A DNA stretch of 64,000 nt, taken from NCBI GenBank assembly GCA_031549605.1, contig JAVBPM010000005.1:2315-66314 (forward strand). Direction: 5' to 3'. This document shows, piece by piece, positions 2,541 through 20,196 of the stretch; positions within the stretch are counted from its first letter, which is position 1; each line of letters opens with the position of its first letter. The translations under genes and the position numbers were made by a program. The notes under the pieces are model-generated. The model had not been told where the DNA came from. It did no database searches and was given only the letters and a program-made list of their open reading frames with translations. This DNA is from Oscillospiraceae bacterium (GTDB lineage Bacteria > Bacillota > Clostridia > Oscillospirales > UBA929).

Positions 2541-3985
2541 ACAACCAGCCCAGCCCTTACAACGGCAACGCCAATGTGCCGTTTATCGCCAAGCCGCCAA
2601 CCGTGCCACAACCGCGCGAGTGTCTGTTTGTCATACTCACCTTTGCGCTCTGCTTGCTAACCGTCAACGTTTTCTGGCTTGGCCCACTGCCGCGTCTCGG
2701 CATTCCACTGCTGCTGCTCATTGCTATCGCGCTGTTTTTCCTCTATGCCGGCCGGCCGCTGGCGCAATACAACCGTAGCGGCCTGCTGCTACTGGCCGCC
2801 AGCGTTGCCAACGCGCTGCCGTTCGTGCTTAACGCCAACACGGCGCTCTACCCCATCCGGCTGCTGCTGGTGCAGCTGCTGGCTGCTATCGGCATCACGC
2901 TGGCTGTCAGCCCGTCGGCCGGCGGATTGGCTACGCCGACCGACGCGGCACACGCCGGCGGTGAGGCAATACGCCGCACATTTACCAACGTCAATAAGCC
3001 GGTACGCGTCTTTTTTGGTCTTAAAATCAAGGGCACCGTTGCCAAGGTACTGACCGGCCTGCTGATTGCCGTGCCGGTTGTCATTGTGGTCGTCGTGCTG
3101 CTGTCCTCGGCTGATACCGCCTTTGGCAAGGCCATTGTCGGCATCTTCGGCTCGCTGGCCAAATGGAACAGCGACCGCGTGCCGACTGTCATTTTCGCCT
3201 TGCTGCTCACCTTTCCGCTGTTCAGCTTTTTGTACAGCAACCGCCATGCCGACAGTCTAAATCCGCTGCAATGGCAGGAAAAACGAACGCCACAGAGCGA
3301 CGGCGTCATCGTATTGACGATCATAGCGCTACTCTGTCTGCTCTACGCTTTTTTTGCCGCGTTTCAAATGACCTACCTGTTCGCCAACCGTCCGCCGGTC
3401 GGCTTCTCCTATTCCGACTACGCGCGGCGCGGCTTTTTTGAGCTGACCGCTGTCACCGCCATCAACGTCGTGCTACTCCTGAGCGCAATTGTCTCGATAC
3501 GGCCGGACGGGCGCGGTTACAAGCTGCTGAAGCTGCTGGGCAGCGCCATGCTGGCGCTGACACTGGTCATTTTGGCCTCGGCTGTCTATCGCATGGTTCT
3601 ATACGTCCAGGCCGGTGGCTTCACACTGCTGCGCTTCCTCGTCTTCTGGGGCGAGCTGGTCATGCTGCTTACGCTTGTCATGACCGCCATCAAGCTGTGG
3701 CGGCCACGCGTGCACATCTTCCGCGCGCTAACCGGGCTGTGGCTGGGCGGCTTCCTGCTGCTCAATCTGTGCAACATCGACGCGCGCATCGCCGACATCA
3801 ATGTCGCGCTACACAACAGCGGCCATCTGCCCAACATCGACCTCGAGTATATGTCCACGTTGAGCATCGACGCCGTTCCGGCACTGCAGCGGTTGCCCGC
3901 CAGCGATCAGTGCGGCGACGCCATTCGGAGCATCCAACTGCACGAAAAGGAACAGCGCGTCAGCCTGTGGGACTGGCACTTCTAG
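2537..3985 (+). CDS. polytopic membrane protein (DUF4153/DUF4173-like)
   Basis: 482-aa ORF with an ATGA overlap on the HTH gene and at least 10 hydrophobic segments. The family name is recalled from this three-gene cassette and is not verified. Confidence 0.65.
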   Translation: MNNQPSPYNGNANVPFIAKPPTVPQPRECLFVILTFALCLLTVNVFWLGPLPRLGIPLLLLIAIALFFLYAGRPLAQYNRSGLLLLAASVANALPFVLNANTALYPIRLLLVQLLAAIGITLAVSPSAGGLATPTDAAHAGGEAIRRTFTNVNKPVRVFFGLKIKGTVAKVLTGLLIAVPVVIVVVVLLSSADTAFGKAIVGIFGSLAKWNSDRVPTVIFALLLTFPLFSFLYSNRHADSLNPLQWQEKRTPQSDGVIVLTIIALLCLLYAFFAAFQMTYLFANRPPVGFSYSDYARRGFFELTAVTAINVVLLLSAIVSIRPDGRGYKLLKLLGSAMLALTLVILASAVYRMVLYVQAGGFTLLRFLVFWGELVMLLTLVMTAIKLWRPRVHIFRALTGLWLGGFLLLNLCNIDARIADINVALHNSGHLPNIDLEYMSTLSIDAVPALQRLPASDQCGDAIRSIQLHEKEQRVSLWDWHF

Positions 3986-4035
3986 CCAAAACCGAACAGC
4001 GCGGCATCGGCCTTCTCGGCCGGTGCCGTTTGCCT

Positions 4036-4380
4036 TTAGACCCTCAGCAAGGCGTGCAGCTGGGTGGCCAGCGTGTAGGCGTCGGCGTCGGCAGTAAACA
4101 GCGCAATGCCCTTTTCCAGCGCGCGCGCGCGCAACGCCTCGTCGGGCGTCACGCCCTCGGCCAGCACGACACAAGCGACGTCGGCCAGCAGCGCGACAGC
4201 CGCCACATTGGCGTTCTGCATCACGGTTATCCACACACTGTCGGCGGGCGCGCGGCCCATCACCCAGCTCAGCAAATCGCCGATATAGCAGCCGGTTACC
4301 TCGCGGTCGGGTTCGGGCACCGGCACCTGCTCTTTGAGCGCCAAAGCCTGGCACAACTGTTGTACGGTCACAACCATCAC
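4036..4380 (-). CDS. DRTGG domain protein (hydrogenase-cluster accessory type)
   Basis: 114 aa. REVTGCYIGDLLSWVMGRA...VWITVMQNANVAAVALL...GVTPDE...EKGIAL matches the roughly 110-aa DRTGG proteins found next to PHP/HATPase/NuoE genes in Clostridia and Thermotogae. Confidence 0.7.
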   Translation of the reverse strand: MMVVTVQQLCQALALKEQVPVPEPDREVTGCYIGDLLSWVMGRAPADSVWITVMQNANVAAVALLADVACVVLAEGVTPDEALRARALEKGIALFTADADAYTLATQLHALLRV

Positions 4381-4448
4381 TCCTTATTGCCATTATACCA
4401 CATCGACACCGTGATGCAACGCAAACCGTTCAGGCGGCCTGCGAGAAA

Positions 4449-4755
4449 GAGACCCGCTGCTGTGCAGCGGGTCTCTCAGACTGTCAAAAAAGCGCGCACC
4501 GTAAAACCAGCGTCAGAAAAAGGAGAAACCGGCGACGCAAAGCTGTGTCTTGATTCTCGGCTAACAATTTTGCGGCGCACCGATAAGGTCGCTGCGCCGC
4601 AATGGTTTTACTTGCTGCAGAAACGCTGTCCTAGCGTACCATCGTACGCCGAAGGACAGCGTTTCTTTGCCTGCGCACTTCTTTGTCAGTTTGTCAGCGT
4701 GCCAAAAACAAGTTTTTTGACACGCTGCGAGACACGCTGCTGTGCAGCGGGTCTC
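4449..4755 (+). mobile_element. MITE-like non-coding element, copy 1 (core 4477-4728) with flanking duplicated 27-bp terminator hairpin (4449-4475 and 4729-4755)
   Basis: Core shares its first 33 nt exactly, and about 150 nt nearly exactly, with the copies at 34318-34570 and 59397-59631. Imperfect terminal inverted repeats are CAGACTGTCAAAAAA / TTTTTTGACACGCTG. Confidence 0.7.
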
Positions 4756-4776
4756 TTTCGCGCAAAACGGCTTCAA

Positions 4777-5181
4777 TCAGGACGGGTTGATTGGCTGTAA
4801 AATGGCACTGAGCGGAGTGTTATAGGCTAAAATATTGACAAATTTTATCGAGTAGAGATCACATAAAATGGTGTGGCTGTTGTCAATGGCACCCAGCAGG
4901 ATGTAGTTGGCGCCCACGCTGAGCAGATAGCCGGTGCGGTCGTTGAGCACGTCGCCAATCAAAAATTCAACGCGCATCAGCTTGCCCAGCTGCGTGCGCA
5001 TAAAGCCGGGCGTGTACAGCGGGCTGGTCAGTGTCTCGGGCATCGACGCCAAATCAATTGTTAGCGGCGCCTGGATGTCGGTCACCGGCGGCATAATCAT
5101 ATTGGTGCCTGGCACCGGCGACATGGTGCCCGGCGTCATCATGGTCGGCGGCAAAACGGGTGGGGTAGCGGTGGGATTCAT
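4777..5181 (-). CDS. gerQ: spore coat protein GerQ-like
   Basis: Pro/Thr/Met-rich N-terminus. C-terminal GKLMRVEFLIG...GYLLSVGANYILL...CDLYSIKFV resembles the GerQ/YwdL core. Sits directly downstream of a cwlJ-like gene, and CwlJ is functionally linked to GerQ in Bacillus. Confidence 0.6.
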   Translation of the reverse strand: MNPTATPPVLPPTMMTPGTMSPVPGTNMIMPPVTDIQAPLTIDLASMPETLTSPLYTPGFMRTQLGKLMRVEFLIGDVLNDRTGYLLSVGANYILLGAIDNSHTILCDLYSIKFVNILAYNTPLSAILQPINPS

Positions 5182-5199
5182 ACAAGACTTCCTCCAAAA

Positions 5200-5640
5200 C
5201 TATGTTTTTGCATACAGCGGCGTGGGTCGGTAGAAGCAATGGTCGTTGATGTCGGTGTGATACACACCGCTCTTGTTGTACGGAAAATAGGGAATACACG
5301 GCGCGTAGGGATTGAAGTACCACAGGCTGTTGCCGGTCTCGCCCAACCGCTGGCCGGCCAACGCCCAATCGGCGATTTGATAGTGAATGGGCTCGGGGTT
5401 CATATTGTAAATGTTCTGCGGGTTGTACTTGCCGCCCAGTGTCTCGGTCGCGCAGTCAAACTGCCCCGGCTGAAACACCACGCGTTGCAGGCTGCCCTGC
5501 CCTACGCGCAAGTATTCACCGGTATCGGCGTGGACACGGTTCATCACCACACTGGCCACACCGCGCATCCCGTTGTCGCCCTCGCCGCCCGCTTCACATT
5601 TAATGAGCCGCGCCAGCAGCTCTCGATCACTGAATGCCAT
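5200..5640 (-). CDS. cwlJ: spore cortex-lytic cell wall hydrolase, SleB/CwlJ (Hydrolase_2) family
   Basis: LIKCEAGGEG...GVASVVMNRV...FQPGQF motifs. AAGGAGG RBS before ATG 5640. Confidence 0.85.
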   Translation of the reverse strand: MAFSDRELLARLIKCEAGGEGDNGMRGVASVVMNRVHADTGEYLRVGQGSLQRVVFQPGQFDCATETLGGKYNPQNIYNMNPEPIHYQIADWALAGQRLGETGNSLWYFNPYAPCIPYFPYNKSGVYHTDINDHCFYRPTPLYAKT

Positions 5641-5705
5641 GTGCCGACCTCCTTAGGTTTCAACCCAGTCTATGTCGAACGCAGACCTTCTGCCACAGTA
5701 GACAA

Positions 5706-5740
5706 CGGGGCGGACGCAACCAACAGTTGCGCCCGCCCCG
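5706..5740 (-). terminator. GC-rich stem-loop between the vWA gene and cwlJ (possible operon terminator/attenuator)
   Basis: CGGGGCGGACGCAACC-AAC-AGTTGCGCCCGCCCCG. The apex is a near copy of the iterated GCAACC-N3-GGTTGC palindrome. The downstream U-tract on the minus strand is weak. Confidence 0.3.
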
Positions 5741-5756
5741 TATCATCTTTTGTGTC

Positions 5757-6917
5757 TCACTCGTCCTGTGTCAACGACTCTTTTTTCAACGCGCGTTCCA
5801 GCAGCTGCGGCAGCCTATTGGGCGTACAGGCAAAACAGGGGATGCCCAACACGGCAATGCGCTTGGCCGAGGCATGATCATAGGCGGGGTGCCCACGGTC
5901 GCTGAGCGCCGTCAGCACAATAACAGTAACACCGCTCTGCTGCAAATCCTCCAGCTGGGCATACAGCTGTGCCTGATTGCCGCCCTCATAGAGGTCAGTC
6001 AACAAGATGAAGACCGTGTCCTGCGGCTGCTCTATCAACTGCCGGCAATAGCCAACGCAGCCGTTGATGTCGGTTCCGCCACCCAGCTGCACGCCATACA
6101 GCATATCAACCGGGTCGTCGCCGCACTGCTCGGTTAAATCAACAACGGCGGTATCAAAGGCGACAACGTGCGTTTTCAGCGCCGCCATCGAGGCCAGCAC
6201 CGCACCGCACACGGCACCGTAGACAACCGATTCGGCCATCGAGCCCGACTGGTCCATGGCCAACACCACCGTCCACTTGCTGCTGCGCCGCGCTCTGTCA
6301 AAAAAGTAGACGCGCTCGGGCACAAGGCGGCGTAGCCCCACATTATAGCTTCTGAGGTTCTTGCCAATCGTAGTTTTCCAGTCGATGCTCGCCGCGTGGG
6401 GTATCGGGCTGTGCGCGCGTCGATTGACAGCGCCGGACACCGCCTGCTTCAGCTGACTCTCCAGCCGCTGATTAATATCGTCGACAACGGCCTGCACCAC
6501 TTGACGCGCCACCGCTTTGGTCTGCTCGGGCACCTTGTCCTTCAGCGCCATCAGCGTTGTCACAATGGCCATGTCCGGCTTGACCGCCGCCAGTGTCTCT
6601 GGCTCCAGCAACAGCTGTTTTAGGCCGCGACGCTCCATGGCATCGGCTTGCAGCACACTGACAACATCGCGTGGAAAGCAGCGGCGCACATCGGCCAACC
6701 ACCGCGCGATATAGGGCGCGCTGGCCTCGCGGCTGGCACTGCGCTGTTCGTCGTCTCCGTAGCGAAAGCCCTGCTGCGTCTCGTCGTAAATGGCGGCCAG
6801 CGCTTGGTCCATCAGGCGCTGCTCGCCGCTCAGCGGCGGTGCGCCCTGTTGGTCAAACCAGTCATCGACCTGCGGCCCCAGCAGCAGGCGCCAACGCGTC
6901 AGGTCAGCACCGCTCAT
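5757..6917 (-). CDS. von Willebrand factor A (vWA) domain protein, YehP-like
   Basis: 386 aa. MIDAS VVLAMDQSGSM ... GGGTD ... LLTDLYEGG. ATGA overlap (6914-6917) with the upstream PRTase gene. Confidence 0.85.
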   Translation of the reverse strand: MSGADLTRWRLLLGPQVDDWFDQQGAPPLSGEQRLMDQALAAIYDETQQGFRYGDDEQRSASREASAPYIARWLADVRRCFPRDVVSVLQADAMERRGLKQLLLEPETLAAVKPDMAIVTTLMALKDKVPEQTKAVARQVVQAVVDDINQRLESQLKQAVSGAVNRRAHSPIPHAASIDWKTTIGKNLRSYNVGLRRLVPERVYFFDRARRSSKWTVVLAMDQSGSMAESVVYGAVCGAVLASMAALKTHVVAFDTAVVDLTEQCGDDPVDMLYGVQLGGGTDINGCVGYCRQLIEQPQDTVFILLTDLYEGGNQAQLYAQLEDLQQSGVTVIVLTALSDRGHPAYDHASAKRIAVLGIPCFACTPNRLPQLLERALKKESLTQDE

Positions 6918-7432
6918 TCTTCAATCAATATGGCGTCGACAAAGTTGTCGTCGACCCAGCTGCGGGTGTGCTCATTCAATGCCATACCAATGGTCGCCAC
7001 GCCGGCAATGGCCACCTCCTCGGCATCGAGCAGCCGCAGTGCCGCGCGCACCTGTGCGCCGCTTTGAATCCACTCGTCGACCAGTACAACGCGGCTACCG
7101 CGCGGAATGCTGCCGCGCACAGCGCACAGCGTTTGTGACTGCCCCGTCGAATCGACGTAGCTGTCGCTAATCAATTCCTCCTCGCGGTAGGGCAGCTTGC
7201 CGCCCTTGCGCAAGGCGATAAACCCGACGTGCAGGCGTGCCGCCATCGCCGCGCCGAGGATCCAGCCCAGCGCCTCAGGAGCGGCCACATAGTCGACCTC
7301 GCCGTAGTAACCGGCGCTCAGCCGGTAGACAATGGCCTCAAAAAGCTGCGGCCGTTGAAACAGCGGCAGCAAGTCGTTGCGCCCAACCGTATTGCCCGGC
7401 AGCAATATCTTAATCTGTTCACGTAGATCCAC
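6914..7432 (-). CDS. type I phosphoribosyltransferase, adenine-PRTase (Apt)-like with a divergent PRPP loop
   Basis: 172 aa. VDYVAAPEALGWILGAAMAARLHVGFIALRKGGKLP aligns with the Apt core. The PRPP motif reads RVVLVDEWIQSGAQ instead of VDDLLATGGT. GTG start preceded by AAGGAGGG right after the upstream stop. Confidence 0.8.
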   Translation of the reverse strand: MDLREQIKILLPGNTVGRNDLLPLFQRPQLFEAIVYRLSAGYYGEVDYVAAPEALGWILGAAMAARLHVGFIALRKGGKLPYREEELISDSYVDSTGQSQTLCAVRGSIPRGSRVVLVDEWIQSGAQVRAALRLLDAEEVAIAGVATIGMALNEHTRSWVDDNFVDAILIEE

Positions 7433-7447
7433 AACAAGCCCTCCTTT

Positions 7448-9688
7448 TCAAAACCCGTCAAAATCAAAAGTCGATACCTCATCCAGCCATTGCCGCTCCT
7501 GCTCGCTCAGCGGCTGGCTGACAGCATCCTCCACTTGGTCGGCGCTCAACGCACGCAACTGTGCCAGCTGCTGACACACCATGCGCTTCTCGGCGGGTGA
7601 GAAGCCGGCCAACGCCCGGCGCAGGATTACCAACACCGGCACAAAGGCGTCCTCCTCAAGTGCCGCCATATAGTCGTCCAGCGCCTGCCACAGTTTGGAC
7701 AGCGACAGCAGCGCATAGTGATTGCGCGAGACCAGCCCTTCAAACCAGCGCGCACTGTCGGCCGGCAATGTGGCGGACGACAGTCGGTGGGTCATCAACG
7801 GCAGCCACCGTGTCTCGTCCATGCCGTCGCGCTCCAACAGCAGCGCCGCCGCCGTGCCCGCCAGCAGGGCATTAACACTCTGCCCGTCAGCCACGGCGTG
7901 CAACGCCTGACGCCACGCCTCGCCGTCACACAACGACGGGTGCTGGACGGCGGCCTCCTGCACCAGCCACAGCGCCTTTTGCACCGCTGCGGCGGCGTTA
8001 TCGTCACAGCCGCAACTGGTGGTTGCGATGCCCGTCGCGCGAACAAATAGCTGCGACAGCAACGGCTCCAGCGCCGTAGTATCGGTGTGTCGCAGTCCGC
8101 CAAACTTCACCGTCATGCTGAGCGTGTGCAGTGCCTCGGCCACTCCCTCAAGGCTGTCCTGTTGACCGGTAAAGTCGCGCAGTGCTTCAGCAGCGGCGCG
8201 CAGCGCGTCCGGCAGGCCGCACGCGGCCGCCGACTCGACAACAGCTGTAATATCGGCGATACATGTAACGCACTGTAATTGCTCGGCCAGCATCTCGCGT
8301 GCCGCCTTGTCAATCGTCTCGCCGCGCAGTGCGTTTTCGGCCAGCGCGATTTCGGTATCCGGCGTCCACTGCAGCGCATAGACTTCTTTCCACGTCGCAC
8401 CTGTCTGCCGCACCTGCTGACGCTTGCCAAAAGGCACCCCAAGCGCGGCCAAACGGTTGAGAAAGAAAAAACGATTGAGGTCAAGCCAGCGGCTCTGCAG
8501 ACGCTTGACCGCCGTGTTTTCGCGCAAGTCAAGCTGCAGTTCCTTGGCCACCGGCGTGCGGTAGCGCTCCAGTGTCAGCTGACGACACTGCCGCAAAAAA
8601 TCCTGCTGTATGGGCGCGCTCAGATGCTGCGTTGGCAGTGAGCCGGCCGCTGTGCCCACCTCGACGCGGTTGAGCGCCTCGGCTATCGGCGCCAGTTGAC
8701 CCTGTCCCAGGCAGGTAACCGCTGCGGCGCGCAAGTTGTCCAGTGTTGGCAACCGTTGGTTGCGTACCGATGCCAGCGCCAGTGAAAGCCGCGTTGCCTC
8801 CAGCACATCGGCGGCGGATACCGACCGACCCTGTTGCCGCAAGGTCTGTGCCAACTCAGCAAAAAACTGCACCGGAAGCGATTGCAGCGTATCGTCCCGC
8901 AGTGCACTCCACAGCAGTTCAAAGTAGCGAGGACTGTGGATGCCGGCTTCGTAGCCGGTTCGTGACGACAGTCGCAGATAGGTATAGGGCAGCGCCGTCA
9001 GCTGCACCGGCAGTCGCGGCAGGGCGTCGAGCTCGCTATCGCTCATCGGCGGCGCGTCTGTCAGCACCGACGCGTGATAAGCGCCACAGACGACCGCTAT
9101 GTCTTGGTCGGCCACGCCGCTGCGCCGCACGGTCTCGATTTTGCGGCGCATGTGGGCCTCGCGAACTAGGTTTTCCGGCGCGACCGGCTGTAAATCGCGC
9201 AGTCCTTGTCCCAGCTCGTACACCGCCTGCCGGTAGGCGGCGTCACTGCTGTTGTGCTCGAAGGCGGCTTCCCAATAGTCATCAAAGGTTTCATAGCCGT
9301 TGGCCGCTGCCAGTTGCCGGTAGAGATGCTGCACCGACCAGGTCGGCTGCTGGTCGTCTGCTGGTTTTCGTGCCGACAGCGCCAGAAAGACGCCGGTGGG
9401 CAAATCGATAAACTTGGCCTCGGCGCCATTCTCGGACGCCCAGCGCAGAGCGGTTAACTCGGGCGAGTAGTCGGCGTAGGGAAGCAGCAGCGATCGGACC
9501 GGCGGCTGGGCGGCGTAGGCCATGACCGCAACCGGCGGTTGCGTCTCCGCGTCAGTCAGCAGCGCAATCAGCTGTGTGACATCGCTGGGGCCTTCAACCA
9601 GAACGGCCTTGGGGCGCTGCCTGTCCAATGCCGCGCGCAGGTGGAGCGAGGCGGCCGGTGAAAAGTGCCGCACACCAAATACCATCAC
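7448..9688 (-). CDS. large uncharacterised protein, YehM/DUF5682-like
   Basis: 746-aa ORF. Size and position (between a MoxR-type AAA and a vWA gene) match YehM of the E. coli yehLMPQ cluster. The family name is recalled, not searched. Confidence 0.6.
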   Translation of the reverse strand: MMVFGVRHFSPAASLHLRAALDRQRPKAVLVEGPSDVTQLIALLTDAETQPPVAVMAYAAQPPVRSLLLPYADYSPELTALRWASENGAEAKFIDLPTGVFLALSARKPADDQQPTWSVQHLYRQLAAANGYETFDDYWEAAFEHNSSDAAYRQAVYELGQGLRDLQPVAPENLVREAHMRRKIETVRRSGVADQDIAVVCGAYHASVLTDAPPMSDSELDALPRLPVQLTALPYTYLRLSSRTGYEAGIHSPRYFELLWSALRDDTLQSLPVQFFAELAQTLRQQGRSVSAADVLEATRLSLALASVRNQRLPTLDNLRAAAVTCLGQGQLAPIAEALNRVEVGTAAGSLPTQHLSAPIQQDFLRQCRQLTLERYRTPVAKELQLDLRENTAVKRLQSRWLDLNRFFFLNRLAALGVPFGKRQQVRQTGATWKEVYALQWTPDTEIALAENALRGETIDKAAREMLAEQLQCVTCIADITAVVESAAACGLPDALRAAAEALRDFTGQQDSLEGVAEALHTLSMTVKFGGLRHTDTTALEPLLSQLFVRATGIATTSCGCDDNAAAAVQKALWLVQEAAVQHPSLCDGEAWRQALHAVADGQSVNALLAGTAAALLLERDGMDETRWLPLMTHRLSSATLPADSARWFEGLVSRNHYALLSLSKLWQALDDYMAALEEDAFVPVLVILRRALAGFSPAEKRMVCQQLAQLRALSADQVEDAVSQPLSEQERQWLDEVSTFDFDGF

Positions 9689-9699
9689 GGCTCTGCTTC

Positions 9700-10794
9700 T
9701 CAGCGTTCGGCGGCAGGCAGCAGCGCGGTGAGCGATTGGTATAAGCCCTGCCAGCCGGCGCGTTTTTTGACCACAGTGCTAAGATACTCGCGTAGCACGG
9801 CGGCGTCCTTTTGCTCATCCTTAACCACGGCACTCAACAGGCCGGGCGCGAGGTCGTTGTCGGTGATGCTGCCGCTGCCAAAGCAGCAGGACAGCGACAT
9901 GGCGCCCACCAGCAGACTGATAGCGTCGGCGGTCGACAGCACGCCGGACGGGCACTTTACGCGTTCACGGCCGTCCTCGGTCACGCCGGAGCGCAGCTCG
10001 CGGAACACGGACACGACCTTAGCGACGACCTCGTCACCCGGCTGCGCGCCACCTAGGTTCAGCGTATCGGACAGCTGCGCCACGCGGGTGGAAACAATAC
10101 GTTTTTCGTCCTCGGCGGTGGCCGGCGGTGGTAGCACCACCATGTTAAAGCGCCGTTTGAGCGCTGATGACATGGCGTTGACGCCGCGGTCGCGTGTGTT
10201 GGCGGTAGCGATGAGATTGAAGCCGCGAGCCGCTTTGACATCGGTGGCCAGTTCGGGTATGGCGATACTCTTTTCGCTCAGCAGGCTAATCAGCGCGTCC
10301 TGCACCTCGCCGGCGCAGCGGGAGATTTCTTCAAAACGGGCGATGGCACCGCGCTCCATGGCCTGATAAACCGGTGTCTTGACCAGCGCATCGGGCGTTG
10401 GGCCGTTGGCGATTAACAATGCGTAGTTCCAACCGTAACGAATTTGCTCTTCGGTGGTGCCCAGTGTGCCTTGCACCACCAATGTTGAGTCGCCGGATAT
10501 GGCAGCGGCCAGATGCTCGCTCAGCCACGACTTGGCCGTGCCCGGTTCGCCGATTAGCAGCAGGCCGCGGTCGGCCAGCAGCGAAGCGATGGCGATTTCA
10601 ACGGTGCGGCGGTCACCAATATACTTAGCGCTGATGTCCACGCCCTTGGCCTGTCCGCCCACAATATAGGTCAGCACGGCCTGCGGCGACAGCTGCCAGC
10701 CGTCGGGACGTGTGGCGGTATCGGCGGCGGCCAGCGCCTCGAGTTCGCGGCGATACAGCCATTCGGCCGGCTGACGCAGTACATTTTGGTTCAT
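9700..10794 (-). CDS. MoxR/AAA_5-type AAA+ ATPase, YehL-like
   Basis: Walker A LLLIGEPGTAKS, Walker B-like AIARFEEISR, sensor ATANTRD. Start set at ATG 10794 (GGGGTGG RBS); the ORF-track start at 10812 is a TTG. Confidence 0.85.
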   Translation of the reverse strand: MNQNVLRQPAEWLYRRELEALAAADTATRPDGWQLSPQAVLTYIVGGQAKGVDISAKYIGDRRTVEIAIASLLADRGLLLIGEPGTAKSWLSEHLAAAISGDSTLVVQGTLGTTEEQIRYGWNYALLIANGPTPDALVKTPVYQAMERGAIARFEEISRCAGEVQDALISLLSEKSIAIPELATDVKAARGFNLIATANTRDRGVNAMSSALKRRFNMVVLPPPATAEDEKRIVSTRVAQLSDTLNLGGAQPGDEVVAKVVSVFRELRSGVTEDGRERVKCPSGVLSTADAISLLVGAMSLSCCFGSGSITDNDLAPGLLSAVVKDEQKDAAVLREYLSTVVKKRAGWQGLYQSLTALLPAAER

Positions 10795-10808
10795 GTTGAC
10801 CACCCCAT

Positions 10809-11723
10809 TCAAAAATCCAGCAATGCGTTGTCCAAAAAGGGATACTGGCGCATAAAGCGCGGCAACTTAAGCGCTTGAATACAGGCGTCAAACAGTGCAA
10901 CATCGGCTGCGTGTCGTTCGGCAACCGTTGGTTGCGCCTTCTGCAACGCTTTTAACGCCGCTTTGTCACCCATCTGTACTAAGGCTTTCAGCGCCGCAAC
11001 GCGAACAACCTTATGGTTGTCAAGCAGTAGCGCCTCGAGGGTCGGACGCGCGTCCGGCTCCTTGCGCAAGCGATAGACCGCCTCAGACCGTAGCTCGCTG
11101 CAGCCGCGCTGCAGCACACGCTCAGTAAAACCACGATCCTTTTGGGCCGCCAACAGCCGAAAGGTGAGGCAGTTGCCTCGACGGCTGCTGGTCAACGTAA
11201 ACCGCGACTCAAGCGCGCTGACGGCGTCTTCGCCGATGCCCCGCAACGTCAGCGCGGCGAGTGTGGACACTTCGCTTGACTGACTGTGAAGTGCCATACA
11301 GAGCGAGGGCAACAGGCGCAGGTCGAACAGCTGGTTGCTGTCGAAGGCCCGCTGCAGCAGCTCGGCACGACCGGGTGCCGCTGTTGTCAATGCGGCGTGG
11401 AGGGCTGTCAGGTGGCTGTACGGCAATGTCGTGGTCAGCGCGCTACCTGCTGTACGCGGCGCTTTCGGCGTGGCAACCTGAGGTTGCTTACACTGCGCCA
11501 CCAGCAGCGCCTGTGTCAACGACAACGCGGCCAGCGGCGAGTCGCGCCCCTCGGAACACGCCAATACAAGTTGTTCGAGTCTTTGCAGTGCAGGTGTTTG
11601 GCTTGCCGCAACCTTTAGTTGCGCCGCCAGGCGCACCAACTGGGCATCGTCTTTTGCGGCGGCAGGGCCGGCAATGAGCAGCCGGCGCAGCTGCGTATGC
11701 AGCGCTGTTAACGTATCAGTCAT
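10809..11723 (-). CDS. all-alpha, HEAT/ARM-like repeat protein
   Basis: 304 aa, Ala/Leu-rich helical. The C-terminal DNHKVVRVAALKALVQMGDKAALKALQKA resembles HEAT_2/PBS-lyase repeats. Confidence 0.55.
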   Translation of the reverse strand: MTDTLTALHTQLRRLLIAGPAAAKDDAQLVRLAAQLKVAASQTPALQRLEQLVLACSEGRDSPLAALSLTQALLVAQCKQPQVATPKAPRTAGSALTTTLPYSHLTALHAALTTAAPGRAELLQRAFDSNQLFDLRLLPSLCMALHSQSSEVSTLAALTLRGIGEDAVSALESRFTLTSSRRGNCLTFRLLAAQKDRGFTERVLQRGCSELRSEAVYRLRKEPDARPTLEALLLDNHKVVRVAALKALVQMGDKAALKALQKAQPTVAERHAADVALFDACIQALKLPRFMRQYPFLDNALLDF

Positions 11724-11735
11724 CAGGCACCTCGC

Positions 11736-13160
11736 TTAGGCCAGGCGCAACAGGCCCTGCGGCCCGAGCAGCGACAACGGAGCCACCTGCAGGCTGCCGT
11801 CGCGGTAGGCAAAGCGGCCCAGAAGCGCCGAATACTGTGACAGGCGGCGACCCAGCAGCGATAGCACCGGCAGGGTGTCGGCCCAGCCACCGGAAACGGC
11901 GTTGGCCAGCTGAAACCACACAGTGCCGCAGCGCACGAAGTGGCCGCTCTTATCGGCAGAAAACTCGTCGCAGGAAAGCAACACATAGGGATGCCGACTA
12001 CAAAGCGGATTGATGAGCTGCTGCTTGACCTGACGGCAAATGTGCTCGCCGTCGGTCTGTCGGCATTGGCACGCGGCCTGCCAGTCGGCATCGTCCGGCG
12101 GTGTCATGGACGGCAACTCGTTCCAACGGATGCGACGGTTTTGGCCGGCCGTTGGATAGTGATAACACTGACGCACGGTCAGCATGCGGTCGCAGGAGTC
12201 TTCCTGTGGTACGTGCTGCACGGCGCGGTAAGGACGATAATTGACGCTTAGGTCAACGCGCGACTCCTCAAGGTTCAGCCACACGCCGAGGTCCTGATAG
12301 TGCAGTTCGGCCTCGTTGTCGTAGCAGGTGAAGGCCAGCTGCAGCAGGTGGGCTGTCGACGTATTTCCGATGGCCGCCAAGTCGCTCAGCTGCCACGCTG
12401 TGCCCAGTACGGCCTCGATTTCCGACGTAGTGTCGCGCGGCGCTTCAGGGTTGGCCAATCGGTCTTGCAGATAGCTGCGTCCACGCTGCACGAGGGCATG
12501 CACGCGCGCTGCGTCTTGACATACGATGGTATACATGGCCTCGGTGTCGGTCATGGCGAAGGTGTCCAACAGTTGTAGCAGAAGACCCTGCACGCCGGTC
12601 AGGTGGCAGTCGGCCAGCTGTTTGGTTTGGTTTTTCAGCGCCAGCAGCGTTTTTCCATTGACGGCTGCCAAGCCATTGGCGGTCAAAGCCTGCAGAACGG
12701 TTTCAGCCAGCGCTAACCCTTGCAGCTGTTGCTCAACCCGGCTGTTGCTGCGCGCGGTGCCGGCTGTTGTTGCTGCCGATGCCGCCGGCTTGGACTCGGC
12801 ACGTCGCGCCGCTTTTTCGCGCTTGTCAACCAACGGTTGCGGCAAGGCGGCGGTTGTAAACTTTCGGTTGCGCGCTTTGGCCAGCGTCAGCGCCAATGCA
12901 TGCTTGCACGGACGTTTGCGACTGGGGCAGCTGCAGCTGAAAGCGGGACTGGACTCGTCGGTAAAGTCGGCCGACACGGTGTAGCTGCTTTTGCCACTGC
13001 CGAGGCACTCACCAAAAAGGATGTGACCGTCGGGACTGCTATTCAGTTGCACCAGCTGGCCGGCTTGTTCTATCGCGTCGGCGTTGCGGAAGGAGGCCGG
13101 ATCGGGCGCTAAGGCCTTGACTACAGCTTCAGAAACGTGCACTTTGACCTCTCCCTCCAA
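11736..13160 (-). CDS. SWIM zinc-finger protein, YehQ-like
   Basis: CxCx7CxH SWIM signature FSCSCPSRKRPCKHALAL. The ORF-track start is a TTG. GTG at 13145 behind GGAGGGAGAGG is the likelier start. Confidence 0.8.
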   Translation of the reverse strand: MEGEVKVHVSEAVVKALAPDPASFRNADAIEQAGQLVQLNSSPDGHILFGECLGSGKSSYTVSADFTDESSPAFSCSCPSRKRPCKHALALTLAKARNRKFTTAALPQPLVDKREKAARRAESKPAASAATTAGTARSNSRVEQQLQGLALAETVLQALTANGLAAVNGKTLLALKNQTKQLADCHLTGVQGLLLQLLDTFAMTDTEAMYTIVCQDAARVHALVQRGRSYLQDRLANPEAPRDTTSEIEAVLGTAWQLSDLAAIGNTSTAHLLQLAFTCYDNEAELHYQDLGVWLNLEESRVDLSVNYRPYRAVQHVPQEDSCDRMLTVRQCYHYPTAGQNRRIRWNELPSMTPPDDADWQAACQCRQTDGEHICRQVKQQLINPLCSRHPYVLLSCDEFSADKSGHFVRCGTVWFQLANAVSGGWADTLPVLSLLGRRLSQYSALLGRFAYRDGSLQVAPLSLLGPQGLLRLA

Positions 13161-13320
13161 CCTTCTCTCTCTTCATCATACACCACCCATTAGGGCCTGT
13201 CAAACGACGCTACACCCTTTTTTTCGACATTTTTGGCACCGCTTGCGTTATGTCAACATAGACTGTAGTGGGTGCTGTCGGCAACGCCATCAGAACAACA
13301 TATATAAGGAGACATTGACT

Positions 13321-14394
13321 ATGGATTTGAAAAACTTTTATGAAAAGCTCGAGTTCGAGCCGACGGGAAAACCTCACAAGGAGGACCGCTGCTGCGGGTA
13401 TGACGGCTGTCACAAAAAGTGCGTCTGCATTTGCGAGGGCCCTAAAGGTGACCGTGGACCCTGCGGCCCCAAGGGTGAGACGGGCGATAAGGGCGAGCGC
13501 GGCCACAGGGGCGAGTGCGGCATGCCGGGTTGCCAGGGCGAGTGTGGACCTAAGGGCGAAAAAGGCGACAGGGGATGTCAAGGCGAGCGCGGCCCTAAGG
13601 GTGAGAAAGGCGAGCAGGGCAGCCGCGGTGAGTGCGGGCCCAAGGGTGAAAAAGGCGAGCAGGGTTGCCACGGCGAGCGCGGTCCTAAGGGTGAAAAAGG
13701 CGAGCAGGGCTGCCGCGGTGAGCGCGGTCCCAAGGGTGAAAAAGGCGAGCAGGGCTGCCACGGCGAGCGCGGGCCCAAGGGTGAAAAAGGCGAACAGGGC
13801 TGCCAGGGCGAACGTGGGCCTAAGGGTGAAAAAGGCGACTGTGGCGCTTGCGGCAGCGGCGAGCTGCTGGAAAACCCCGGCTTTGAGCACTGTCATTACG
13901 ACATTCCCTGCGGGTGGAAGCCCTGCTGCCAAGCCTGTGCCGATGATGCTGTGACAATGGCAACGGCGGACGGTCAGGCCGTTGAACCGGGCGAGGCTTT
14001 CCGACCCCACGCCGAGCGCAACATTGAGTGCGTCAACTGCGAGGGTACGGTTCACAGCGGCTGCCAAGCGGTGCGGCTAGAGGACAACGCCTGTTTATAT
14101 CAGACGGTCTACCGCGTTGAGAAAGACCGCTGCTATGCCTTCTCTTTCTTTGCCAAGGGCCAGGACGCCAAACTGACGGCTGAGGTGCTGTTTGAATCCA
14201 AGTGTAAGGATGAAACGGGCGCTTGCATCGTGGTGCGCGCCGGCGATTTGTGCTGTGACTGCTACGGCTATTACCGCGTCGTAACGTCCAAGGTGCCGTA
14301 CGACGTCGACTGCGTCACCGTGCGCTTTACCGTCGACGGCTGCGACTGCCGCGGCTATGTGCTGCTCGACGACGTTTCACTGACCGGCTGCTAA
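13321..14394 (+). CDS. Cys-rich collagen-like (Gly-X-Y) protein with a C-terminal jelly-roll/CBM-like domain; probable spore-surface or exosporium protein
   Basis: ATG 13321 behind AAGGAGA. About 47 uninterrupted GXY triplets (13438-13860). I count 37 Cys in 357 aa. The C-terminal domain is bracketed by ELLENPGFE ... VLLDDVSL. Confidence 0.85.
   Translation: MDLKNFYEKLEFEPTGKPHKEDRCCGYDGCHKKCVCICEGPKGDRGPCGPKGETGDKGERGHRGECGMPGCQGECGPKGEKGDRGCQGERGPKGEKGEQGSRGECGPKGEKGEQGCHGERGPKGEKGEQGCRGERGPKGEKGEQGCHGERGPKGEKGEQGCQGERGPKGEKGDCGACGSGELLENPGFEHCHYDIPCGWKPCCQACADDAVTMATADGQAVEPGEAFRPHAERNIECVNCEGTVHSGCQAVRLEDNACLYQTVYRVEKDRCYAFSFFAKGQDAKLTAEVLFESKCKDETGACIVVRAGDLCCDCYGYYRVVTSKVPYDVDCVTVRFTVDGCDCRGYVLLDDVSLTGC
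13582..13851 (+). repeat. six tandem 45-bp in-frame repeats encoding GE(R/C)GPKGEKGEQG(C/S)x
   Basis: Consecutive units GERGPKGEKGEQGSR / GECGPKGEKGEQGCH / GERGPKGEKGEQGCR / ...GCH / ...GCQ / GERGPKGEKGDCGAC, read directly from the sequence. Confidence 0.9.
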
Positions 14395-17942: not shown

Positions 17943-18769
17943 ACGCCCGCAGCAACGCCGCCGAAGCCGTCGGACTGACGCTACAGGCGTCGGGCGCAGT
18001 CAAAGCGGCTACCGTGTCGCTCGGTGCTTTGGCGCTGAGTCAACGGCGTCTCGACGCGTTGGCGCGCAAAGCTGGCGGCGTCAACAGCGTTTTGGTTGCC
18101 GCGTTTCCCTACTATGCCGGCCCGCGTGACCTGCCTATGTCTCTTTACGCACAGGGCCTTGACTATGTACCGGTGCTGACGGCGCGCATGGAGCGCGCGG
18201 TTGAAGCGCTGGCACGCCGCTGGCCGTCGGCTTTTTTTGCCGCGCTGCCGGAGGGCTCGCCGCTGCCTATTGTGGAGGTTGCGTATCGCGCCGGGCTGGC
18301 GCTCAAGGGCAAGAACGGACTGGCGATTGTACCGCCCTATGGCAGTCTTATTTTTCTCAGCGCACTGGTGTCCGACATGGACTGGTCGGCGCTGTTGCCG
18401 CCGTCTACGGTGTGCAGTGACAGCTGTCGTGCCTGCCTGTCCGCCTGTCCGACCGGCGCCTTGCTATCCGACGGGCTGGATCGAGGTCGCTGTCTGTCCT
18501 ATATCAGCCAGCGCTGGCAGGCGACGCCCGAGCAGCTGGCGCTGCTGGAAAAAGACCCGACTCTCTGGGGCTGTGACCGCTGTCAGCTGTGCTGCCCGCA
18601 CAACCATGCACCCGCGCTGTCGCCTTATCCCGAGTTTACCGCGTCGCTGCTGCCGCCGGTCATTGACGCCGATGCGCTGGTGGGACGCGCCTGCAATAAG
18701 CACGGCCTGGCACTGTTGCAACGCAACGCCGAGCTGGGCGGCTTTCACCACATTAAAGGAGATTCTTGA
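17936..18769 (+). CDS. 4Fe-4S cluster protein, epoxyqueuosine reductase (QueG)-like
   Basis: CRACLSACPTGAL ... RCLSYISQ ... WGCDRCQLCCPHN. Shorter than canonical QueG. Confidence 0.5.
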   Translation: MVNARSNAAEAVGLTLQASGAVKAATVSLGALALSQRRLDALARKAGGVNSVLVAAFPYYAGPRDLPMSLYAQGLDYVPVLTARMERAVEALARRWPSAFFAALPEGSPLPIVEVAYRAGLALKGKNGLAIVPPYGSLIFLSALVSDMDWSALLPPSTVCSDSCRACLSACPTGALLSDGLDRGRCLSYISQRWQATPEQLALLEKDPTLWGCDRCQLCCPHNHAPALSPYPEFTASLLPPVIDADALVGRACNKHGLALLQRNAELGGFHHIKGDS

Positions 18770-18771
18770 CC

Positions 18772-20130: not shown

Positions 20131-20138
20131 AAAAGGGG

Positions 20139-20167: not shown

Positions 20168-20196
20168 ACACTGCGCGCGGGCAAGAGTACCTATGT

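Follow-up and report, generated by a model that had tools for sequence, protein, structure and literature searches.

A widespread five-gene MoxR-vWA-DUF5682 cassette with a captured phosphoribosyltransferase gene in an uncultured gut Oscillospiraceae bacterium

What might six tightly packed genes of an uncultured gut member of the Oscillospiraceae do, and which of them belong together? The genes lie at 5757-13160 of the window, by which we mean the whole 64,000-nucleotide stretch of DNA analyzed. A preliminary description, made from the sequence alone, read them as a module akin to E. coli yehLMPQ with two extra genes, and preferred a role in defense. We conclude that these genes are one chromosomal representative of a cassette that is widespread and self-contained and has five genes, for a SWIM protein, a partner in the HEAT/DUF5691 position, a YehL-type MoxR AAA+ ATPase, DUF5682 (YehM), and a vWA protein of the CoxE type. 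E. coli yehLMPQ is related to this cassette but divergent and rearranged. Two lineage features distinguish the window copy: a short HEAT partner and a captured phosphoribosyltransferase (PRTase) gene. Our best explanation of the whole, to which we assign a probability of about one-half, is a cassette of these five genes, with the PRTase added, in which the MoxR-vWA pair controls a TIKI-type hydrolase.

Results

An open reading frame check recovered the six co-directional minus-strand genes, with coordinates and junctions in agreement with the preliminary description, and Pfam searches matched all six domain assignments made there. Intergenic gaps are 12 bp (SWIM to HEAT), 11 bp (AAA to DUF5682), and 15 bp (DUF5682 to PRTase); the HEAT-to-AAA gap is 14 bp if the ATPase starts at ATG 10794 and becomes a 4-bp overlap if it starts at TTG 10812, and the PRTase and vWA genes share an ATGA overlap at 6914-6917. 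Ribosome-binding sites of the GGAGG type had been proposed for both the PRTase and the ATPase genes. That of the PRTase was found 5' of its start (AAGGAGGG), whereas the ATPase gene has only the G-rich signal GGGGTGG. The divergent intergenic region upstream of the SWIM gene contains a promoter-like TTGACA-17 nt-TATGAT (13203..13175, minus strand; 11/12 matches), a consensus match only, from a scan of the 9-kb region that returned 3 sites where 1.7 were expected. At the other end, 17 nt past the vWA stop codon, a GC-rich hairpin with a 17-bp stem (5706..5739, minus strand) has a predicted RNA folding energy of -38.5 kcal/mol (z = -7.13), equaled by 0 of 200 shuffles. This hairpin is a probable transcription terminator that lacks a classical U-tract, and a terminator scan requiring a T-tract did not detect it.

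The architecture was compared across a census of 80 loci from Bacillota, Planctomycetota, Verrucomicrobiota, Bacteroidota, and one Alcaligenaceae (Pseudomonadota) metagenome-assembled genome. All five genes are present at 67 loci, and in 64 of these they share one order and strand: SWIM, HEAT partner (~600 aa), AAA, DUF5682, and vWA. The HEAT gene is therefore a core member of the predominant arrangement and extra relative to E. coli only, so that just one of the two supposed additions, the PRTase gene, is truly extra. The five-gene order also occurs in NCBI annotations of Rhizobium, Deinococcus, and Methylosinus, and was seen in Fusobacterium; the family comprises 4,489 clusters at 50% identity. 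The kinship with yehLMPQ that had been proposed is borne out by phmmer comparison of the window proteins with the K-12 locus (YehL, 2e-76; YehM, 9e-29; YehP, 7e-67), and the cassette does appear to be uncharacterized, as no paper containing the term "DUF5682" was found in the literature searched.

The surroundings of the cassette are heterogeneous. The 736 flanking ORFs of the 80 loci fall into 581 clusters, the commonest neighbor is present at 8 of the 80, and six or more contexts occur within Paenibacillus alone; the cassette is thus a self-contained module. These flanks bear on the possibility, raised earlier as a dedicated assembly machine, that the cassette is a maturation or metal-insertion chaperone for one client enzyme, comparable to CbbQ-CbbO (Rubisco), NorQ-NorD (NO reductase), and CoxD-CoxE (CO dehydrogenase). 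The membership of the vWA protein in the CoxE family, the near-core status of the cassette in E. coli, and the fact that the MoxR proteins characterized so far mature specific complexes (PMC3893208) are consistent with such a role. No conserved client gene lies nearby, however, and the neighbors are functionally heterogeneous, so we consider a client-specific chaperone quite improbable.

The first gene (11736..13160, minus strand; 474-aa ORF) encodes a SWIM zinc-finger protein (Pfam SWIM, 1.3e-5, above the gathering score of 19.6 bits), for which GTG 13142, preceded by a GGAGG, is the probable start. Its finger, CSCPSRKRPCKH, was located at 12900-12935, as previously reported; the C-terminal ~370 aa contain no known domain, and the protein has no sequence relative in the PDB. 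A homologous SWIM gene comes first at 65 census loci (phmmer, 1e-60 to 1e-83). The second gene (10809..11723, minus strand) encodes a HEAT-repeat partner of 304 aa (Pfam HEAT_2, 3e-8), shorter than any in the census (minimum, 587 aa; median, 609 aa; n = 68). It is equivalent to the N-terminal half of the partner, ~600 aa long, that most cassettes have: its residues 3-263 align by blastp with residues 4-272 of 605- to 612-aa partners, and in hhalign the long-form profile of 638 columns is matched by the short form at columns 16-283 (probability, 100%; E = 2.7e-47). A similar short form (300-331 aa) is found in L172/L173, where the PRTase is absent. In the annotated Rhizobium, Deinococcus, and Methylosinus loci a DUF5691 gene occupies the HEAT position, and a 1,009-aa Hymenobacter protein is a fusion of SWIM to the DUF5691 partner; hhalign of the HEAT partner with Pfam DUF5691 gave a probability of 29%, which does not establish homology.

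The ATPase gene (9700..10794, minus strand; Pfam AAA_5, 1.2e-36) encodes 364 aa from its likely start at ATG 10794, within an ORF that reaches TTG 10812 (9700-10812, 370 aa). Its Walker A motif GEPGTAKS (10528-10551), named in the preliminary description, is shared by 75 of the 80 cassettes, all of which have GxPGTAKS, and the acidic pair EE of the Walker B region (RFEEISR in the window, 10318-10338) is likewise present in 80/80. The only PDB sequence relatives of this protein are the AAA modules of Midasin (2e-11). The vWA gene (5757..6917, minus strand; 386 aa; Pfam VWA_CoxE, 4e-51) carries the MIDAS motif DQSGS at 6240-6254, where it had been noted, and this motif is invariant in 79/79 vWA proteins. 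No PDB sequence relative of the vWA protein was found.

The DUF5682 protein (7448..9688, minus strand; 746 aa; Pfam DUF5682, 1.9e-150) begins with an alpha/beta domain that resembles TIKI/TraB (residues ~1-250; the N-domain), followed by C-terminal alpha-helical repeats; AlphaFold models gave pLDDT values of 84.8 (full-length protein) and 87.2 (N-domain). The top three Foldseek matches of the N-domain (probability, 0.72-0.91) are all one Tetrahymena complex IV subunit of 383-384 residues, and the sole complex IV subunit of that length is COXTT5, annotated "TraB family protein"; the fold match is marginal (E = 0.011; TM, 0.36), and the top 50 include no ChaN, EreB, or RRSP structure. Besides DUF5682, the only recurrent Pfam families are TraB_PrgY_gumN (4/12) and ChaN/"Tiki superfamily" (3/12), both weak and under gathering scores, and the window's own N-domain matches neither TraB nor ChaN in Pfam. 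The N-domain carries the motifs FGVRH (9665-9679), VLVEG (9590-9604), YSPE (9458-9469), REAHM (9149-9163), and CGAYH (9074-9088), all on the minus strand. The residues GxRH, E32, SPE, D95, RE(A/S)xM, and GxxH are fully conserved even at identities as low as ~28%, and the motifs are unchanged in E. coli, Rhizobium, Deinococcus, Hymenobacter, Methylosinus, and Fusobacterium; the window protein deviates at two otherwise near-invariant peptides (GYEAGI for GYGAGN and ARWFEG for GAGWFE). TIKI-fold proteins can be nonenzymatic binders, as in the case of ChaN. TIKI enzymes have a signature of two His, two Glu, and a basic residue (PMC6254334), with which the invariant residues of DUF5682 agree. The best reading of the models and the motifs is that this domain has a TIKI/TraB-superfamily hydrolase-like fold, an assignment that is new here. 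Because the His/Glu/Arg set is invariant, catalysis is favored over pure chaperoning, which also speaks against the client-specific chaperone.

The gene between DUF5682 and vWA (6914..7432, minus strand) encodes an Apt-like type I PRTase of 172 aa (Pfam Pribosyltran, 3.8e-9) with a PRPP loop, VVLVDEWIQSGAQ, at 7052-7090 and RKGGKLP at 7190-7210. Its best PDB relatives are Apt proteins (1.7e-13), and all NCBIfam Apt models score under cut-off (82.7 bits versus 125), so that by NCBI thresholds it is, as the preliminary description supposed, not an ordinary Apt. The protein probably keeps an ancestral PRPP- or nucleotide-binding chemistry. Its catalytic competence is uncertain, because the family has Leu at the PPi-loop position where Apt has Arg and the window copy has lost a family-conserved Tyr (VDSTG for VDYSG); the 14-sequence family alignment includes the window copy, in which its invariant residues are thus present by construction.

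This PRTase is rare. Only 14 relatives were found among 5.8 billion clusters, none of the 80 reference cassettes contains it, and 79 of the best 80 metagenomic relatives stand alone. The arrangement seen in the window recurs in L009/L091 and L174, with the ribosome-binding site and the ATGA overlap with vWA conserved. The three known in-operon PRTases (window, L009, and L174) group together in 200/200 bootstraps, as a clade that lies within stand-alone Apt-like genes; its sister group and every relative with no more than 51% identity likewise stand alone, in unrelated contexts. We conclude that a single capture brought an Apt-like gene out of a stand-alone family and into the DUF5682|vWA junction, and that its translation there is coupled to that of vWA.

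Is the captured gene an unrelated passenger, an Apt-like enzyme of salvage or of another substrate that inserted at a permissive junction and gains only expression from the operon while the cassette works as its five-gene version does? The junction in which it sits is the one most often and most heavily interrupted, with a gap of >150 bp at 9/75 loci versus 2/75 for AAA|DUF5682, and its cargo elsewhere is mutually unrelated: HipA_C-like, TonB_C, AAA-ATPase_like+PDDEXK_9, and TPR proteins, or an insert of 3.4 kb that encodes an ABM protein and, on the opposite strand, an MCP. The stand-alone relatives point the same way, as does the finding that no derived active-site change is common to the three in-operon PRTases. 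Against this, the three copies form a single clade, and the insertion, with its ribosome-binding site and stop-start overlap, was retained while the PRTases diverged to 56-68% identity and the flanking DUF5682 to 40-45% over the parts that could be compared (331 aa at the C terminus in L009 and the final 73 aa in L174); this favors selection on co-expression, not necessarily a common function. We hold a pure passenger to be possible without favoring it. The best reading is a co-expressed accessory or passenger, and the odds that the PRTase feeds a nucleotide signal into the complex rather than merely riding the operon are about even.

Discussion

The preliminary description favored a conflict system. 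In such a system the SWIM and HEAT proteins would sense an invader, the MoxR-vWA pair would transduce the signal, and death or arrest of the cell would be brought about by an effector, namely the PRTase through its action on nucleotides or PRPP or else the hydrolase DUF5682. MoxR-vWA pairs have been placed at the core of predicted NTP-dependent conflict systems (PMC7159879), and a MoxR-vWA pathway that senses threats has experimental backing in a 2026 preprint (PMC13622651). The distribution of the cassette is patchy across phyla and spans many genomic contexts, some plasmid copies adjoin recombinases, toxin-antitoxin genes, and IS elements, and among the cargo found at the junction elsewhere are a HipA-like kinase and an AAA+PD-(D/E)XK protein. 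Expression of E. coli yehL and yehM rises in hns/stpA mutants, a frequent behavior of horizontally acquired genes (PMC3686432).

The context nevertheless fails to support a defense function. The six proteins have no PADLOC match (the best, at 0.0017 and 0.005, cover small regions), and the neighbors show no enrichment in defense genes and no defense island; among 149 nonredundant immediate neighbors no PADLOC family has more than two matches, mostly to generic ATPase or TatD models, and by Pfam the neighbors are transporters, metabolic enzymes, and regulators. E. coli yehLMPQ is near-core, the kind of placement that the preliminary description itself set against its proposal: it is present in 5,353 of 5,426 complete genomes (98.7%), chromosomal in 5,371 of 5,374 places, and has a median of one copy, unlike strain-variable defense systems. 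No relative was found on 2.9 million viral contigs, and GenBank has a single "phage" record, an UNVERIFIED fecal contig of 14 kb with no evident phage genes. The PRTase, once taken as the sign of a system acting on nucleotides or PRPP, is a rare lineage capture at a variable-cargo junction; known from three cassettes only, it cannot be the general effector, and it matched no PADLOC model, a result that covers ShosT- and retron-type PRTases if PADLOC v2 holds them. The Aravind-group paper alluded to previously (Kaur et al. 2020) does not contain the cassette and makes no mention of SWIM, YehL/M/P, or PRTases. Nothing found marks the window cassette as an anti-phage system, and we consider such a function unlikely.

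For the preferred reading, control of a TIKI-type hydrolase by MoxR-vWA, we infer a complex, its hydrolase activity, and its target. A MoxR hexamer with intact Walker A and B motifs and the vWA protein with its invariant MIDAS would form an ATP-driven remodeling pair, with DUF5682 as its partner. The TIKI/TraB N-domain of the latter, with two His, at least two Glu, and two Arg invariant, would be the likely catalytic output, as a peptidase or esterase, and its alpha-solenoid may serve as a docking surface. The SWIM and HEAT proteins, fused in Hymenobacter, could act as a target-recognition or scaffold module, and ATP hydrolysis would serve to load the hydrolase, release it, or switch it on at a cytoplasmic target. 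Three further conserved large proteins, SWIM, HEAT, and DUF5682, are not known from the client-specific systems, which is another point against a client-specific chaperone. The proposed remodeling pair itself is modeled on other MoxR-vWA systems and on Midasin.

Results

The locus as a variant of a conserved five-gene cassette

We conclude that the window locus is a rare variant of a known, uncharacterised cassette family, distinguished by the short form of its HEAT partner and by a PRTase gene that it has captured. Six co-directional open reading frames on the minus strand lie precisely at the coordinates claimed in the preliminary description: a SWIM gene (11736-13160), a HEAT gene (10809-11723), an AAA gene (9700-10794), a DUF5682 gene (7448-9688), a PRTase gene (6914-7432), and a vWA gene (5757-6917). 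They are spaced by 12, 14, 11, and 15 bp, except that an ATGA stop-start overlap joins the PRTase gene to the vWA gene. Upstream of the first gene there is a strong match to the -35/-10 consensus (TTGACA-17-TATGAT), and the last gene is followed by a 17-bp GC hairpin (5706-5739; -38.5 kcal/mol, z = -7.1). GGAGG-type ribosome-binding sites had been claimed for the PRTase and AAA genes; the site of the PRTase gene stands, and that of the AAA gene does not, as its most likely start (ATG 10794) follows a Shine-Dalgarno sequence that is G-rich and non-canonical. For the SWIM gene the probable start is GTG 13142, which is preceded by GGAGG.

All six domain calls were borne out by Pfam profile searches: SWIM (1.3e-5, above the gathering score), HEAT_2 (3e-8), AAA_5 (1.2e-36), PF18934 for the DUF5682 protein (1.9e-150, with 701 of 727 profile positions covered), Pribosyltran (4e-9), and VWA_CoxE (4e-51). 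NCBIfam gave no name to any of the six proteins. The AAA protein, whose gene is separated by 11 bp from the downstream DUF5682 gene, has intact GEPGTAKS and hEE motifs. The vWA gene, parted from DUF5682 by the intervening PRTase gene, encodes a protein with the MIDAS sequence DQSGS, which is invariant (79/79).

The family was delimited by searching reference genomes with the DUF5682 profile, which gave 80 loci (from Paenibacillus, Cohnella, Lachnospiraceae, Oscillospiraceae, Planctomycetota, Verrucomicrobiota, Prevotellaceae, and Dysgonomonas) whose open reading frames were labelled with the six window proteins. SWIM, HEAT partner, AAA, DUF5682, and vWA genes are all present in 67 of the 80 loci, and 64 of these complete loci have them in identical order and strand; most of the other 13 are short contigs or contig ends. 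The window SWIM protein is homologous to the first gene of 65 census loci. NCBI annotation gives the order SWIM, DUF5691, AAA, DUF5682, vWA at 28-32% identity on replicons of Rhizobium (pRSpK102d), Deinococcus taeanensis, and Methylosinus OB3b (plasmids), and the Fusobacterium cassette has this order as well. In these cassettes the genes have the order, strand, and close spacing found at the window locus, and homology extends to four of the five proteins. Unlike them, the window locus has a PRTase gene ahead of vWA and a second gene of half length. We conclude that the window locus belongs to this cassette family. The DUF5682 family itself comprises 4,489 clusters at 50% identity (among 1.84 billion representatives) from many phyla, and a literature search found no paper naming it.

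On a plasmid of Hymenobacter sp. HDW8, a single 1,009-aa protein (3189-6218) consists of the SWIM protein fused to its DUF5691 partner. The SWIM part carries CSCPSRVFPCKH at residue ~64 and shares 30% identity over 450 aa with the SWIM protein of Rhizobium, and the DUF5691 match falls at residues 623-740. Because the two are fused in this organism (Rosetta-stone evidence), SWIM protein and partner appear to act as one unit. The true unit is the five-gene module of SWIM, HEAT/DUF5691, MoxR, DUF5682, and vWA, and not the four genes of Escherichia coli.

The divergent relative in Escherichia coli

The K-12 genes yehL (AAA), yehM (DUF5682), yehP (vWA), and yehQ (SWIM) lie in one co-directional cluster, and phmmer aligns the window proteins with YehL (2e-76), YehM (9e-29), and YehP (7e-67). 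The catalytic-type motifs of DUF5682 are common to YehM and the window protein. The SWIM gene comes last in E. coli and first in the window; both products have a Pfam SWIM finger, and neither blastp nor phmmer detects similarity between YehQ (614 aa) and the window protein. The E. coli cluster also lacks a gene at the HEAT/DUF5691 position and a PRTase gene, and has a DUF4132 gene (yehI) and yehK upstream. It is a rearranged, divergent relative of the five-gene cassette. The cluster is present in 5,353 of 5,426 complete E. coli genomes (98.7%), with a median of one copy and a chromosomal placement in 5,371 of 5,374 cases. Expression of both yehL and yehM rises in hns/stpA mutants (PMC3686432), and yehP is a predicted hotspot of +1 ribosomal frameshifting, which was confirmed by mass spectrometry of a yehP-egfp fusion (PMC2790909). 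Across yehLMPQ (16597-22945 of the E. coli locus, L090), 934 genomes have a nucleotide identity to K-12 of 90-95% and 3,407 one of 95-99%. Such diversity seems high for a core chromosomal locus; possible causes are diversifying selection, recombination, and a constraint relaxed by H-NS silencing.

The HEAT partner

The HEAT gene had been regarded as an addition to a yehLMPQ-type module. The census overturns this claim, as a partner in the second position is a regular member of the cassette. Its length in 68 loci is at least 587 aa (median, 609). The 304-aa window protein aligns to residues ~4-272 of the long partners (E = 2.7e-47 for short against long form, hhalign), and from the limits of this alignment the second window gene corresponds to the N-terminal half, with the C-terminal ~330 aa missing. 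It might be supposed that the short form compensates for the gain of the PRTase. This is ruled out by a Clostridiales lineage (L172/L173) that has the short form (300-331 aa) and no PRTase, so that the two traits are uncoupled. As for family assignment, the window protein has no Pfam DUF5691 match, and for the long partner a relation to DUF5691 is no more than hinted at (hhalign probability of just 29%). DUF4132, the domain of E. coli YehI, was considered for the long partner and rejected (no Pfam support).

A probable TIKI/TraB-like domain in DUF5682

AlphaFold models full-length DUF5682 (pLDDT 84.8) as an alpha/beta N-domain (residues ~1-250) joined to a long helical region; the model of the N-domain has a pLDDT of 87.2 and a pTM of 0.87. 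The invariant motifs of this domain (G-x-R-H8, E32, S-P-E77, D95, R176-E177-A-x-M, and G-x-x-H205) are placed at strand ends in the model. The histidines H8 and H205, both within GxxH motifs, and the residues E32, E77, E177, R7, and R176 are invariant in a set of 24 + 12 sequences with identities as low as ~28%, and the motifs are unaltered in E. coli, Rhizobium, Deinococcus, Hymenobacter, Methylosinus, and Fusobacterium. The signature that defines TIKI enzymes consists of a 2His/2Glu site and a conserved basic residue (PMC6254334). Judged by sequence, the DUF5682 residue set corresponds to this signature, and its motifs share the pattern and order of the TIKI/TraB superfamily.

The fold and profile searches lead to the same group of proteins. 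With the N-domain model, Foldseek returned just three matches with a probability of at least 0.7, all to one 383-384-residue subunit of Tetrahymena complex IV and all marginal (E = 0.011-0.06, TM 0.34-0.37). The chain was taken to be COXTT5 by length alone, as the only subunit of that size; COXTT5 is the "TraB family protein" of this complex (PMC10060162). When 12 N-domains were compared with Pfam at a permissive threshold, TraB_PrgY_gumN (4/12, best 0.0064) and ChaN/"Tiki superfamily" (3/12, best 1.5e-4) were the sole recurrent families, with every match below the curated thresholds. Single-sequence searches with the N-domain gave no significant Pfam or PDB match, and sequence searches of the PDB with DUF5682, its N-domain, vWA, and SWIM found nothing. 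The whole-chain fold search yielded weak alpha-solenoid matches only (E >= 0.015), among them a chain of the ZSWIM8 complex (E = 0.03) that was judged not meaningful.

Because three independent lines (motifs, fold search, and profile search) coincide, we consider the placement of the DUF5682 N-domain in the TIKI/TraB superfamily well supported, if not proven. Should it be a hydrolase of this type, the putative catalytic residues would be H8, E32, E77, R176/E177, and H205. The window protein also departs from two near-invariant peptides of the family, with TGYEAGI for SGYGAGN and SARWFEG for GAGWFE.

A probable single PRTase capture at a frequently interrupted junction

The PRTase has 14 relatives among 5.8 billion clusters (word-indexed search), and no Apt-like gene occurs within 10 kb of the cassette at any of the 80 reference loci. 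Among its best 80 metagenomic relatives, 79 are stand-alone genes, and those looked up one by one lie in unrelated neighbourhoods. The window arrangement (DUF5682 C terminus, PRTase, vWA N terminus) recurs on two further contigs, where the PRTase is 56% (L009/L091) and 68% (L174) identical to the window copy; L174 also has the GGAGG site and ATGA overlap seen in the window. In a neighbor-joining tree of 76 family members (200 bootstraps), the three in-operon PRTases form an exclusive clade (200/200) nested inside the stand-alone genes, which points to one capture, since maintained. The flanking DUF5682 sequences of these loci have diverged to 40-45%, a value that refers to short stretches only.

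The protein resembles Apt, to which its nearest solved structures belong (1.7e-13) and with which it shares the RKxGKLP motif. It scores under every NCBIfam Apt cut-off (best, NF002636 with 82.7 versus 125 bits; TIGR01090, 72.9 versus 185.85). The hallmarks of Apt are a PRPP loop in which an acidic pair is followed by T/S-G-x-T and a PPi-loop Arg within E-A-R-G-F. The window PRPP loop, VDEWIQSGAQ, retains the acidic pair and S-G of Apt (VDDLLATGGT) and differs in the remainder; the loop typical of its family is VDEWIETGAQ. PEALGW stands in place of the PEARGF of Apt, with Leu for the PPi-loop Arg throughout the family, and a family-conserved Tyr is missing from the window and L174 copies. At E <= 0.01 the PRTase matched 0 PADLOC families, a result that extends to ShosT and retron PRTases if they are included in PADLOC v2. 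Taken together, the sub-cut-off Apt scores, the altered loops, and the lack of a PADLOC match suggest that the protein can be assigned neither to the canonical salvage Apts nor to the known PRTases of defence systems.

The position of the capture is shared with other genes. The DUF5682|vWA junction is the most often interrupted one, with a gap of >150 bp in 9 of 75 loci (versus 2 of 75 for AAA|DUF5682), and the genes it holds in different lineages bear no relation to each other. They include a HipA_C-like protein (L025, 12249-13196; 28.5 bits, slightly under the gathering score), a TonB_C protein (L040, 12270-13127), an AAA-ATPase_like protein with PDDEXK_9 (L051, 12287-13861), a TPR protein (L039, 2486-4195), and a 3.4-kb insert with a 206-aa gene, an ABM protein, and an opposite-strand MCP gene (L171, 3270-6049). 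The 206-aa gene, which follows DUF5682, was considered as a hidden PRTase and rejected, as it shows no similarity. Since the PRTase sits in the same slot as these unrelated inserts, the case that it reveals the chemistry of the cassette is weakened. The junction may be a true "cargo slot" or simply a tolerated insertion site, and the PRTase, co-translated with vWA, may be a modulatory accessory or a passenger. What is evident is that one operon junction repeatedly accepts foreign genes, and that the PRTase is one such capture, kept in three lineages. A few lineages have small open reading frames at the AAA|DUF5682 junction as well: one of 189 aa in Dysgonomonas (L040, 9250-9819; no Pfam match, transposase-like by eye), and hypothetical proteins of 203 aa in Hymenobacter (L178, 7368-7979) and 78 aa in Deinococcus (L176, 8762-8998).

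Genomic context and the question of defence

The cassette lies in highly variable surroundings. The 736 open reading frames in the flanks fall into 581 clusters, and Paenibacillus cassettes alone occupy at least 6 different contexts. A conserved adjacent client enzyme, of the kind found with CbbQO, NorQD, or CoxDE, was not found, as the commonest neighbour family occurs at 8 of 80 loci. The module is self-contained, without a conserved client. The neighbours are ordinary (transporters, metabolic enzymes, and regulators), and plasmid-borne cassettes are mostly on large, non-mobilizable replicons.

The preliminary description had proposed a candidate sensor, ATPase, and effector system acting on nucleotides or PRPP. 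A defence reading is not supported, on three counts: the absence of a match to a catalogued system, neighbours that are not enriched in defence genes, and an E. coli homologue with near-core distribution. PADLOC gave no meaningful match for the six window proteins, and among 149 non-redundant immediate neighbours no family matches more than 2 and nothing is convincing. In four Paenibacillus loci (L029, L030, L042, and L048) the cassette is directly downstream of an RNA-repair-type cluster, RlaP - RtcB - AAA - TatD, an association present in ~5-8 of 80 loci; some neighbours from this cluster may account for the PADLOC matches to "mad2/mad3/mad8" and "QatD."

A phage origin was rejected. A scan of viral contigs found no relative, and the sole GenBank "phage" record with DUF5682 looks bacterial. 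This record (MT835988.1, L180) is an UNVERIFIED 14-kb faecal contig with AAA, DUF5682, and otherwise bacterial-looking genes; it has no evident phage genes, and no vWA homologue in the ~1.2 kb downstream of DUF5682. In PHROGs, phrog_30700 matches DUF5682 (2e-31) and phrog_31592 matches vWA (7e-68); both are small, carry no functional annotation, and may stem from prophage-region calls.

The window is an ordinary stretch of chromosome, with V-type ATPase genes, minD, and apparent mreCD and PBP2 genes (calls by eye). It comes from an Oscillospiraceae bacterium, and its V-ATPase A subunit has 74% identity to the closest relative with a name. The divergent neighbour of the cassette (13321-14394, plus strand) encodes a protein with a collagen triple helix (Pfam Collagen, 1.9e-24) and a C-terminal domain rich in Cys; the gene contains 6.9 copies of a 45-bp tandem repeat (13527-13838). 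The protein resembles exosporium or BclA-type proteins of spore formers. On the other flank lies a cell-wall hydrolase gene (Hydrolase_2, 5200-5640). The segment 20001-24000, around a 737-aa open reading frame (20625-22838, minus strand), has a GC content of 0.51-0.53, compared to ~0.58-0.63 elsewhere, and may have been horizontally acquired.

Discussion

The cassette is conserved and self-contained, its ATPase and MIDAS motifs are intact, and its DUF5682 protein has enzyme-like invariant residues. The preliminary description was sound in its observations, and its interpretation holds in part: kinship to yehLMPQ and the domain assignments stand, and a defence or nucleotide-effector system is not supported. 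The locus reveals no new defence system. What it offers is mainly a sharper definition of the cassette and the testable hypothesis that DUF5682/YehM is a TIKI-type hydrolase, and less the six-gene variant as such. Cassettes of the yehLMPQ type are a "known unknown," widespread among bacteria and near-universal in E. coli.

We infer that the MoxR ring and the vWA/MIDAS protein would form an ATP-driven remodelling pair. This pair may engage DUF5682, with the TIKI-type domain as the catalytic output, and the SWIM and HEAT proteins may select or scaffold the target. YehL is one of seven recognised MoxR subfamilies (PMC3893208). The only solved-structure relatives of the window AAA protein by sequence are the AAA modules of eukaryotic Midasin/Rea1 (2e-11), and solved bacterial MoxR proteins (e.g., RavA and CbbQ) are absent among its structure matches. 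Since Midasin, too, joins an AAA_5 motor to a MIDAS domain, the cassette can be likened to a "split Midasin."

In a more far-reaching reading, the cassette would be an ATP-gated intracellular hydrolase machine, in effect a bacterial "split Midasin," with a cargo slot and a PRTase that couples it to nucleotide or PRPP status. The MoxR ring and MIDAS protein would deploy a TIKI/TraB-type peptidase on targets chosen by SWIM and HEAT; the DUF5682|vWA slot would take alternative input or effector genes (the PRTase, or elsewhere a HipA-like kinase, PD-(D/E)XK, or TPR protein); and the PRTase variant would tie the machine to nucleotide/PRPP status in a stress or conflict response. We regard this combination as unlikely to hold in full, with roughly one chance in eight. 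If true, it would describe a previously unrecognised class of machine. If functionally coupled, the PRTase would provide a handle on the signal to which the cassette machine responds.

The components can be compared with several known systems. The window PRTase has the type I PRTase fold in common with Apt, ShosT, and retron PRTases, and the acidic-pair PRPP loop and RKxGKLP motif as in Apt, yet it belongs to a separate ~170-aa "VDEWIETGAQ" family that is mostly stand-alone. DUF5682 resembles the TIKI/TraB/PrgY/ChaN/erythromycin-esterase superfamily in its alpha/beta domain, with two GxxH motifs at strand ends and Glu and basic residues. Unlike TIKI/TraB members, the domain is fused to a helical region of ~480 residues and is encoded inside a MoxR-vWA operon.

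The cassette as a whole might still have a part in conflict. The MoxR-vWA ternary conflict systems (PMC7159879) likewise combine MoxR and vWA with further large partners. The bpMoxR match of the window is sub-threshold (24.6 versus 27 bits), Pfam found no beta-propeller, VMAP, or fused effector domain in the cassette, and Kaur et al. 2020 (PMC7159879) do not mention SWIM, YehL/M/P, TraB, or PRTase. The NCBIfam matches to MadB, GvpN, and ViaA are all far under their cut-offs.

The combination of an AAA_5 ATPase with a MIDAS vWA module is shared with RavA-ViaA, CbbQ-CbbO, NorQ-NorD, CoxD-CoxE, and Midasin/Rea1, and the vWA protein of the cassette falls in the Pfam family of CoxE. The AAA and vWA modules are separate polypeptides here, unlike in Midasin. 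Compared to the known MoxR-vWA chaperone pairs, the cassette has no adjacent client gene and carries three extra conserved partners, SWIM, HEAT, and DUF5682.
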